Origin: Escherichia coli | GTDB taxonomy: Bacteria > Pseudomonadota > Gammaproteobacteria > Enterobacterales > Enterobacteriaceae | Assembly: GCF_016026235.1 (NCBI RefSeq) | Contig: NZ_CP065613.1 | Reading direction: 5' to 3' (one strand) | Length of the DNA: 64,000 nucleotides | In this document: positions 15,737-19,118 of the stretch, one piece after another | Numbering within the stretch: position 1 is the first letter of the stretch | How the letters are laid out: each line of letters begins with the position of its first letter | Notes under the pieces: model-generated | Databases searched by the model: none | Seen by the model: only the letters and a program-made list of their open reading frames with translations | What the model was told of the DNA's origin: nothing | Program-made: the position numbers and the translations under genes

Positions 15737-16876
15737 TTACCAGTTATGAATGTCGCTGGCTGTATCCGTCATGTAACGGACACCGCTAATAGTTGGCAGC
15801 AACTGATTGATCAGACGGTTCCAGCGGGAAACCGGGGCGGTGGTGACATACACCACGTCATAAGGTTGCAGGCGGAATTCTGTCGCCATCACCAGCGACG
15901 TGGCATCGGACATATCCAGCTGGTAGATATTGGCAATCTTGCCATTACGCCCGCCCTCGCCTTTCAGCGGACGAATGACAAAGATGCCGCTGGCGTTGGA
16001 GGTGGTCATGTCGATACCTTCAGCATTGCCCAGAGCTTCAGTCAGGGTCATGCCGCTAAAGTCCATTTTCAGGGTGCTCTGTTTCTTCACTTCACCCATC
16101 ACAAATACTTTCAGATCATCATTACGGGGCACGTAGAGAATATCGCCGGGATAAAGCAGTCGGTTCTGATTGAGGTCGCCGTTTTGCATCAGCGCCTGTA
16201 AAGAAATGCGTTCTTCACGACCATTGTGTGTTAGCACTACGTTGCGCCAGTCAGCGGTGTCGGTCAGGCCACCTGCGGCGTTGATGGCGTCGAGAATAGT
16301 CAGTGGCACGTTGGTGATCGCCTGTTGACCGGATTTATTCACCTGACCGGAGATATAGGCCTTTTGTGAGCGGAAGGCGGCGATATTAACGTCCACCTGC
16401 GGGTCAGCGATGTACGTCGCTAAGCGCCCGGTAATATCACTGCGGATTTCAGCGAGCGTTTTCCCGACTACGTGAACCTTGCCGATATACGGGTAAAACA
16501 TAGTGCCGTCAGGCTGTACCCAGTTGCCGGTGTCGCTGGAGCTGCGGTACTGACCGGCTGGCGTGGTGAGTTCCGGGTGATCCCAGACGGTGACATTAAG
16601 AACGTCCCCCGGCCCGACGCGATACTGGTAATTCGCGATCTCGCTTTCCAGCGTCATATTGGGGCGCGCTACATTCGGGCGTGGGCGTAATTGGTCAATC
16701 AGGCGCGGGGTCAGCGGATAAACATTCACCATTTTGTCGAGATCGAAATCAGCGTCCTGCTGTTTGATGACGTCTTTGCCCATCGTCGACATATTGCTGC
16801 CCGGAAGTACTGTGCAACCGCTTATCAAGGTTACTGACACCAATAATGGCATCAATTTCATTTTGGATTTCATCAT
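15737..16876 (-). CDS. wza: Outer-membrane polysaccharide export lipoprotein
   Basis: 379 aa; lipoprotein signal peptide ...LISGC; first gene of the capsule operon. Confidence 0.93.
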
Positions 16877-17054
16877 TGTTTATTTATCACTTTGGCAGAG
16901 TAATTATCCTGTGCACTATTAATAGCAATGTCGCCATGCACATTTACCTTGCAGTTAATTGAATAAAAATTTAACTGGCATCAGTCCTAAAAAAATTGAT
17001 TTCATCCGCAGGCTATTGACAGAATAATTCAGACTGGTCTTTCAGGCATCCAGA

Positions 17055-17066
17055 CACGCTACCGCC
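17055..17066 (-). promoter_or_regulatory. ops element (RfaH recruitment site) within a JUMPStart-type leader upstream of wza
   Basis: Plus strand reads CACGCTACCGCC, so the minus-strand transcript carries GGCGGTAGCGTG, the ops consensus, about 180 nt upstream of the wza start codon. Confidence 0.7.
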
Positions 17067-17534
17067 CCTGGCTTTTTAGCTACCAATACACTGATTTAGA
17101 TTAATTTTTCAAACCCTCTCTGCATACAATCGTTGATGAGAAAGGGTTATTGCGGAAATTAACTTCCGAATATAAGGTGACATTATGGTAATTGAATATT
17201 GGCTCTCCAATAATGCAGGAGGAAGTGTTACAGCTAACGGAATAGCAGGCAAGGTAACAATTCGGCAATTGGCTATTTTTAAGAATTATATTAAGTGTCA
17301 TTCAATATGGTTTTTAGGAGTTTCTTTAGGTTGACAATATTTAATATTGCGCCTCCACATGCGATATTTCTTAAATAATGTTTTATTATTACCACTTTTA
17401 ATTCAGGGATAATGTGAGGTTATTACCCTCAAATAATATGAGATAAATAGTGCTGCAACATTGCATTTTTTCCCCGATTTATCCATGATCGAATTGTGAC
17501 ATTTGTCATACAACGAATAGGTTTTGTACTTACT

Positions 17535-19118
17535 ATGGAATGGATTGCCGATCCGTCTATCTGGGCCGGGTTAATCACGCTGATTGTGATCGAACTGGTC
17601 CTCGGCATTGATAACCTGGTCTTTATTGCCATCCTCGCCGAAAAACTACCGCCGAAGCAGCGCGACCGCGCACGGGTTACCGGGCTGCTGCTGGCGATGT
17701 TAATGCGCCTGTTACTGCTGGCGTCAATCTCCTGGCTGGTCACCCTGACTCAACCGCTGTTCAGCTTCCGCTCGTTTACCTTTAGCGCCCGCGACTTAAT
17801 CATGCTGTTTGGTGGTTTCTTCCTGTTGTTCAAAGCCACGATGGAGCTGAACGAACGGCTGGAAGGGAAAGACAGCAATAATCCCACACAACGCAAAGGT
17901 GCGAAGTTCTGGGGCGTGGTGACGCAAATTGTGGTACTGGACGCCATCTTCTCACTCGACTCAGTGATTACCGCCGTCGGGATGGTCGACCATTTACTGG
18001 TCATGATGGCCGCCGTGGTTATCGCTATCAGCCTGATGTTGATGGCCAGCAAGCCGTTAACGCAATTTGTTAACAGTCACCCGACGATCGTTATTCTCTG
18101 CTTAAGCTTCCTGTTGATGATTGGCTTTAGCCTGGTGGCAGAAGGTTTCGGCTTCGTCATTCCGAAAGGCTACCTGTACGCTGCCATTGGTTTCTCGGTG
18201 ATGATCGAGGCGCTCAATCAGTTGGCTATCTTTAACCGGCGACGTTTTCTTTCCGCTAACCAGACGCTGCGCCAGCGGACTACCGAAGCGGTAATGCGCC
18301 TGCTTAGCGGGCAAAAAGAAGATGCGGAACTGGACGCCGAAACCGCGTCCATGCTGGTGGATCATGGTAACCAGCAGATCTTTAATCCGCAGGAACGGCG
18401 GATGATTGAGCGGGTACTTAATCTTAACCAGCGTACCGTCAGCAGCATTATGACGTCGCGCCACGATATTGAGCATATCGATCTCAACGCGCCGGAAGAA
18501 GAAATCCGCCAGTTGCTGGAGCGAAATCAGCATACGCGGCTGGTGGTTACCGACGGTGATGACGCAGAAGATTTGCTCGGTGTTGTTCACGTTATCGACC
18601 TGCTACAACAGTCTCTGCGCGGCGAACCGCTCAACCTGCGGGTGTTGATTCGCCAGCCGCTGGTGTTCCCGGAAACCTTGCCGTTGTTACCTGCCCTGGA
18701 GCAGTTCCGTAATGCCCGCACGCACTTTGCTTTTGTGGTGGATGAGTTTGGCTCGGTGGAAGGGATTGTGACATTAAGTGACGTCACTGAAACCATTGCC
18801 GGTAACTTACCGAACGAAGTGGAAGAGATCGACGCCCGCCATGATATTCAGAAGAATGCGGACGGTTCCTGGACGGCGAATGGTCATATGCCGCTGGAAG
18901 ATCTGGTGCAATATGTGCCGCTGCCGCTGGATGAAAAACGTGAATATCACACCATTGCCGGGCTGTTGATGGAATATTTACAGCGTATTCCAAAACCTGG
19001 CGAAGAAGTTCAGGTGGGGGATTATTTGCTTAAAACGTTGCAGGTGGAAAGCCATCGCGTGCAGAAGGTGCAGATTATTCCGCTGCATAAGGATGGCGAG
19101 TTGGAGTACGAGGTGTGA
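17535..19118 (+). CDS. yegH: TerC-family membrane protein with CBS and CorC/HlyC transporter-associated domains
   Basis: ORF track 17496..19118; start trimmed to [14 protein letters not shown]-terminal TM helices, C-terminal CBS pair. Confidence 0.85.

Follow-up and report, generated by a model that had tools for sequence, protein, structure and literature searches.

The stretch of Escherichia coli DNA analysed here (64,000 nt, referred to as the window) carries two divergent genes, wza (15737-16876, minus strand, start at 16876) and yegH (17535-19118, plus strand, start at 17535), as annotated in RefSeq for the identical strain and for MG1655. The DNA between their starts is the interval considered below:

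16877-17534, no strand assigned: wza-yegH divergent intergenic region, 658 nt, GC 34.7%.

The interval is 100% identical to that of strain VL40 and 98% identical to that of K-12 (13 substitutions), and at least 80% of it is covered in 4818 of the 5426 complete E. coli genomes. It is the E. coli cps (wza, colanic acid) control region together with a putative small yegH promoter, and it is already well studied. The MG1655 RefSeq record shows no regulatory features in the interval; its coordinates (NC_000913.3) are obtained by adding 2120367 to those of the window.

Composition and conservation of the interval

The GC content is 0.347 across 16877-17534, 0.332 across 17100-17500 and 0.284 across 17250-17450, versus 0.518 for the whole window. 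Only 0.09% of the 658-nt windows of the 64 kb have a GC content as low as that of the interval, which is the lowest-GC stretch of its size. A preliminary description of this DNA had reported an AT-rich gap between wza and yegH, most strongly so from about 17100 to 17500; its bounds match the RefSeq starts and both statements agree with the values above. The many A/T tracts that it mentioned are found in the form of mixed W-runs of at least 6 nt, which are enriched (26 vs. 17.7 ± 2.8 in shuffles), and not as homopolymer A/T runs of at least 4 nt, whose number is that given by composition (10 vs. 10.2 ± 2.8). Composition was observed directly in this analysis, as were JUMPstart, the conserved blocks, their spacing and the promoter-likeness described below.

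For comparison, yegH loci were taken from 80 Enterobacteriaceae species. In about 68 of the 80, wza lies divergently upstream of yegH, with a gap of 650-700 nt and a GC content of 0.35-0.41. Of these gaps, 59 were aligned with MAFFT, and the alignment displayed near-invariant blocks set in unconserved spacer DNA. In the wza sense, the order is box 1, block B, block C, block D, JUMPstart, two leader blocks and the translation-initiation region, which in the present sequence are located as follows, with the variable part of the leader added:

17360-17373, minus strand: box 1, TAAGAAATATCGCA, an RcsAB/RcsB-type box centred at about -150 from the predicted wza start, with moderate conservation (about 70%).
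17311-17336, minus strand: block B, TGTCAA..TAAAGAAACTCCTAAAAA, near-invariant in the alignment.
17276-17295, minus strand: block C, CTTAATATAATTCTTAAAAA, near-invariant in the alignment.
About 17254-17220, minus strand: block D, CCTTGCCTGCTATT...TTAGCTGyAACAaTTC, near-invariant.
17100-17210, minus strand: variable part of the wza leader, conserved in neither sequence nor length, with indels.
17055-17093, minus strand: JUMPstart, Rfam RF01707, 57.3 bits (gathering threshold 35), E 6e-12, model positions 1-38 of 38.
16968-17028, minus strand: conserved leader blocks GATTATTCTGTCAATAGCCTGCGGATGAA (17028-16999) and TTTTTAGGACTGATGCCAGTTA (16993-16968), defined by the alignment.
16877-16915, minus strand: wza translation-initiation region, GCACAGGATAATTACTCTGCCAAAGTGATAAATAAACA, near-invariant across genera.

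In almost all species, blocks B and C are spaced by 34-36 nt, and block C and the -35 block by 30-31 nt. The distance from the promoter -10 to ops, the RfaH loading site within JUMPstart, varies from 154 to 191 nt. Box B, box C, the -35 and -10 hexamers and JUMPstart are free of K-12 substitutions; six of the 13 are within 17100-17152 and a seventh is at 17205. The K-12 cps (wza) promoter, Pcps, is the same locus and differs in nothing substantive, apart from a 49-codon frame that is open here and stopped in K-12.

The preliminary description considered the interval a likely dense regulatory hub, which is borne out by about seven fixed-spacing conserved blocks in the 59 species and by the published PhoB and CRP sites. 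The AT-richness might instead be that of neutrally evolving intergenic DNA, or of DNA acquired horizontally, without any special density of regulation. Further low-GC stretches do occur in the window and the homopolymer tracts are not above expectation, as such a reading would have it; against this, seven fixed-spacing blocks persist across genera despite fully diverged flanking spacer DNA, and the interval has published protein occupancy. We regard the chance that composition is the whole explanation as next to negligible.

Some genomes depart from the common layout. In Pseudescherichia vulneris and its relatives (three loci), the gap is only about 475 nt long and lacks an exact GGCGGTAG, the form of ops described below; block C is present. 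In E. coli KE51 (NZ_CP141080.1, 3288-4071), an IS1 lies 70 nt upstream of yegH, and wza has been deleted along with most of the colanic acid cluster. An IS1 insertion between JUMPstart and wza has also been described in a lab-evolved strain (PMC8117528), and IS1 seems to target this AT-rich DNA.

An annotated open reading frame overlies the conserved blocks:

17185-17334, plus strand: 49-aa ORF, 'hypothetical protein' WP_162829205.1, called by PGAP in many RefSeq E. coli genomes, extending across blocks B to D.

The conserved blocks could accordingly be those of a small protein gene on the plus strand. Its annotation in many RefSeq genomes and the presence in many species of an open frame of 40-60 codons over block C are in favor of such a gene. 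However, the ORF is left without annotation in K-12, where it has an in-frame stop (Q28*), as it does in another E. coli, and the frame is not maintained across genera, with at most 25 open codons in at least 10 genera that keep the DNA blocks. Indels of 1-2 nt separate the blocks, conservation takes the form of solid runs of 14-20 nt with no third-position pattern, and a Pfam search of the 49-aa product gave no match. On these grounds the ORF was rejected as a gene, and a coding origin of the blocks is highly improbable. Because of the premature stop in K-12 and the unconserved frame, WP_162829205.1, a RefSeq 'hypothetical protein' that lies across the wza promoter, is probably an annotation artefact, and a widely propagated one.

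Rcs-type boxes and the predicted core promoter of wza

The Rcs-activated capsule promoter proposed in the preliminary description is in line with earlier work: the RcsAB dependence of the wza promoter is already established (Stout 1996; Wehland & Bernhard 2000, both as cited in later papers), and the latter study reportedly found binding of RcsA and RcsB at the wza promoter and the loss of induction upon mutation. A consensus scan for RcsAB, which the preliminary description had suggested, found nothing: with the strict consensus TAAGAATATTCCTA and up to three mismatches, there was no match in 16877-17534. The partial match that it had noted by eye, TAAGAATTATATTA, does exist at 17280-17293 (plus strand) and agrees at 10 of the 14 positions, but had been read from the wrong strand; in the direction of wza it is TAATATAATTCTTA and coincides with one of two 14-mers within the near-invariant blocks:

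17315-17328, minus strand: box B, TAAAGAAACTCCTA, centred at about -105 from the predicted start.
17280-17293, minus strand: box C, TAATATAATTCTTA, the reverse complement of TAAGAATTATATTA, centred at about -70.

Compared with the RcsAB consensus TaAGaatatTCctA, boxes 1, B and C each agree at 9-10 of the 14 positions and have a weighted score of 15/20, and the three best weighted scores in the interval are exactly these three boxes. For a single site a weighted score of 15/20 is not significant, being attained by 49% of shuffles. Conservation adds to it: at the aligned position, a score of at least 14/20 is attained by box C in all 59 species and by box B in 53 of them. Both are located upstream of an Rcs-dependent promoter, are conserved in the orthologous promoters and keep a fixed spacing to the core promoter. 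The right half of box C, AATTCTTA in the wza sense, includes TTCTTA, a good half-site for RcsB oriented toward the promoter, and matches wwTTCykA, the right half (tatTCctA) that Salscheider et al. assigned to the RcsB subunit (PMC3950696). The right half of box B with its A-tail, TCCTAAAAA, matches the tail of the rcsA box. Three copies of TCYKAAAAA are present in the 64 kb, all of them inside the interval (P = 0.001 vs. dinucleotide shuffles of the interval). A full-text literature search for the candidate box sequences returned no relevant paper.

The rcsA promoter offers a direct comparison. Its box is TAAGGATTATCCGA in E. coli and TAAGGTTTATCCGA in Salmonella, and the E. coli box with its tail, as read from the genome of the K-12-like strain 4FA, is TAAGGATTATCCGAAAAA. 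Box 1 is identical to TAAGGATTATCCGA at 10 of the 14 positions and shares with the rcsA boxes the left half TAAG.A and the T-C...A frame, and boxes B and C share their right half and A-tail, TC(C/T)(G/T)AAAAA. The rcsA box joins the two halves better than any single wza box, whereas wza has three boxes in tandem. A second comparison is provided by the galF (K-antigen cps) promoter of Klebsiella and Raoultella, which sits upstream of yegH in the slot that wza takes in E. coli. The five galF loci carry an RcsAB-type box, TAAGATTATTCTCA or TAAGAATTTTCTTA, about 580-800 nt upstream of yegH; in the K. oxytoca group and Raoultella, a TTCTTAAA/TTCTCT half-site follows a few tens of nucleotides downstream, a tandem layout that is the same as that of wza boxes B and C. 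The galF promoters differ in that the first gene is galF and in that they have no TTGCCT...AACAAT block, and no ops was found within 1.2 kb in these loci.

From these comparisons we infer that boxes B, C and 1 would form an RcsB-family array. It is unlikely that box 1 alone is the RcsAB operator, with B and C bound by another regulator, by the alpha-CTD in the manner of an UP element, or by an architectural protein (H-NS/IHF). Of all sites in the interval, box 1 alone fits the invariant core T-AG-----TC--A, with all six invariant positions, including the G at position 4 that is conserved in the consensus and lacking in boxes B and C. In many genera it varies at the N positions alone and fits TNRGAN4TC.NA, to be compared with the published RcsB box, TN(G/A)GAN4TC(T/C)NA. 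Nevertheless, box 1 is missing from Kluyvera, Siccibacter, Superficieibacter, Pseudocitrobacter and several other genera in which B, C and the promoter are retained, boxes B and C carry the RcsB half-site and A-tail found at rcsA, and the Klebsiella/Raoultella galF promoters repeat the layout of a full box followed by the TTCTTAAA half-site. The array of three boxes remains our preferred reading, and it yields a testable suggestion, namely that more than one RcsB-type site is under selection, at fixed phasing.

Downstream of the boxes, block D contains a candidate core promoter:

17224-17252, minus strand: predicted sigma70 promoter P1, with -35 TTGCCT (17252-17247), a 17-nt spacer, the extended -10 TGt (17232-17230) and -10 AACACT (17229-17224).

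The -10 is AACACT here and AACAAT in most genera. Sigma70 elements, for which the preliminary description had also suggested a scan, were sought in two ways. The consensus scan gave a single site, TGGAGA/CATAAT at 17209-17182, where 3.1 are expected by chance; it was rejected because it is below chance expectation and not conserved, lying in unconserved DNA. P1 was given by our own matrix combined with conservation; the matrix is composition-corrected and approximate. No site on the wza strand of E. coli is more sigma70-like by this matrix than P1, which also ranks in the top three, at the matching alignment position, in all 59 species; other aligned positions recur among the top-three sites in at most 11 species. 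The spacing between the -35 and -10 hexamers is identical in 53 of the 56 species. The stricter consensus scan omitted P1. The predicted wza start would be at about 17214-17217 (MG1655 2137581-2137584) and would give a leader of about 340 nt. The published RcsAB box reportedly lies at about -112 to -99, and the leader is reportedly about 340 nt in length; these values would agree with box B and P1, but they carry no weight as evidence here. In the CFT073 dataset the wza start site is listed as NA (PMC9765446).

Block C also contains a TATAAT (17290-17285), which is a perfect -10 in E. coli. Were this the true wza promoter, the start would be at about 17278, box B would be at about -43 in a class II-type position and block D would belong to the leader, an arrangement that recalls RcsB-only promoters, in which the box adjoins the -35 (review PMC5651002). 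It is very unlikely, given that the site has no -35, that other genera have TATTAA or TATTAT in place of this hexamer, and that the site is not among the top sigma70-like ones in E. coli. Position 17290 does not recur as a -10 among the top-three sites of the other species, the nearest one tallied being 17287, in 3 of the 59, and the invariant 17-nt spacing of TTGCCT-TGnAACAAT would be left unexplained.

The wza leader

JUMPstart, together with ops, is the clearest element of the interval and was overlooked in the preliminary description. A search of the interval against Rfam at a permissive E-value retrieved JUMPstart alone. The following elements are located in this part of the leader:

17066-17055, wza sense: ops, GGCGGTAGCGTG, the RfaH loading site, 190 nt before the wza ATG.
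16985-16993, plus strand: inverted TCCTAAAAA, an RcsB-type half-site with its A-tail, the third copy, within the leader block 16968-16993.

The ops sequence GGCGGTAG is on the non-template (sense) strand, between the predicted promoter and the first gene; it is conserved in about 65 species and in nearly all of them is about 190 nt before the wza ATG. CFT073 carries an identical ops GGCGGTAGCGTG at -190 from wza and displays an RfaH ChIP signal in the hns stpA background (PMC9765446). The RfaH-dependent JUMPstart/ops leaders of RF01707 (rfa, rfb, hly, kps and tra) have the same features, that is, a full-length model match and a long leader bearing ops on its sense strand, and no difference from them was found. 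The distance from ops to the inverted TCCTAAAAA is fixed at 73-75 nt in nearly all genera.

The leader of E. coli folds with z = -1.9, and RNAalifold found the JUMPstart hairpin as the only conserved RNA structure in the leader. The blocks downstream of ops, 16999-17028 (GATTATTCTGTCAATAGCCTGCGGATGAA) and 16877-16915 (GCACAGGATAATTACTCTGCCAAAGTGATAAATAA), are strongly conserved without conserved RNA structure.

The yegH side, protein occupancy and regulation

The approximately 95 nt adjoining yegH contain, in the alignment, the invariant blocks ATTGCATTTT, CCATGATC, TGTGACAATTGTCA and AGGT. Three elements have been placed here, one predicted and two published:

17461-17489, plus strand: candidate yegH promoter, with -35 TTGCAT (17461-17466), a 17-nt spacer and -10 CATGAT (17484-17489); predicted start at about 17496.
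17484-17501, minus strand: PhoB ChIP-seq site, TGTCACAATTCGATCATG (PMC10294691 Table 1, MG1655 2137862), conserved in sequence.
17495-17510, no strand assigned: CRP site, TGTGA-N6-TCATA, from in vitro Footprint-seq as tgTATGAcaaatgTCACAatt (MG1655 2137873; PMC12871828).

In 33 of the 59 species, the candidate promoter, equally far from the ATG each time, ranks among the three most promoter-like sites, and both of its hexamers fall in invariant blocks, which suggests that yegH may have a proximal promoter of its own at TTGCAT/CATGAT. Most genera retain the CRP site, as TGTGACAATTGTCAT. The sites for PhoB and CRP (17484-17510) overlap with the -10 and +1 predicted for yegH, and both are kept from genus to genus; no PhoB-dependent change was seen in wza or yegH RNA (PMC10294691). 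An in-frame GTG at 17496 would lengthen yegH by 13 codons, to 540 aa vs. the annotated 527 aa. The annotated start at 17535 is favored because of the conserved AGGT 12 nt before the ATG.

With a GC content of 0.347 vs. 0.518 for the window, and of 0.28 in its core, the interval has the AT-richness of an H-NS-silenced promoter. Matches to the high-affinity H-NS motif TCGATAAATT, reportedly described by Lang and colleagues in 2007, were found in the interval only as sites with two mismatches (3 vs. about 0.85 expected), and are not clearly enriched. Occupancy by H-NS, RfaH, PhoB and CRP is taken here from the literature, as is the Rcs dependence. In MG1655, the wza/yegH site is marked as bound by H-NS in Table 1 of the PhoB study (PMC10294691), which cites Kahramanoglou 2011, and in CFT073 H-NS covers the wza promoter, where only the hns stpA mutant shows a sigma70 peak upstream of wza and the RfaH signal (PMC9765446). 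This published occupancy includes the H-NS enrichment expected of the H-NS-silenced capsule promoter of the preliminary description, and that interpretation therefore stands. In K-12, RNA levels are about 10 for wza and about 2,300 for yegH (PMC10294691), and colanic acid production is turned on by deletion of hns or lon, or by overexpression of rcsA (PMC9143390).

Very probably, then, this is a divergent control region in two parts, an Rcs/H-NS/RfaH-controlled wza promoter with its leader and a separate yegH promoter. The wza side would comprise about 560 nt (16877 to about 17440, with recognizable elements up to 17373) and act as the cps promoter and leader. Transcription would begin near 17216 at a weak sigma70 promoter in need of an activator (TTGCCT, 17 nt, TGt-AACACT), to which RNA polymerase would be recruited, or at which it would be activated, by phosphorylated RcsB and RcsA bound to the rigidly spaced RcsB-family boxes C (about -70), B (about -105) and 1 (about -150). 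H-NS (and StpA) may coat the surrounding DNA of 27-35% GC, so that no initiation would take place unless Rcs signaling is on. Once transcribed, the 340-nt leader would expose ops on the non-template strand, where RfaH would load, and RNA polymerase would therefore read through the approximately 20-kb H-NS-bound operon. The approximately 95 nt beside yegH would serve as a small promoter of its own, overlapped by PhoB and CRP sites without demonstrated effect.

The region is thus real yet ordinary, and the preliminary description was essentially right in substance. As a discovery it is minor, this being a textbook colanic acid promoter controlled by Rcs, H-NS and RfaH; the gains are a coordinate-level map of the boxes, core promoter, JUMPstart and leader blocks, which had been left unplaced, the evidence against the annotated 49-aa ORF, and the suggestion of selection on several RcsB-type sites. 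A more elaborate arrangement, which we consider unlikely, would have wza controlled through a rigidly phased array of RcsB-type half-sites, in which B and C, about 35 bp apart, and the inverted TCCTAAAAA of the leader cooperate, by oligomerization or looping, to displace H-NS from both promoter and leader. If this were true, the tandem layout, also present at the galF promoters of Klebsiella and Raoultella, would be a general design of Rcs-dependent capsule promoters.
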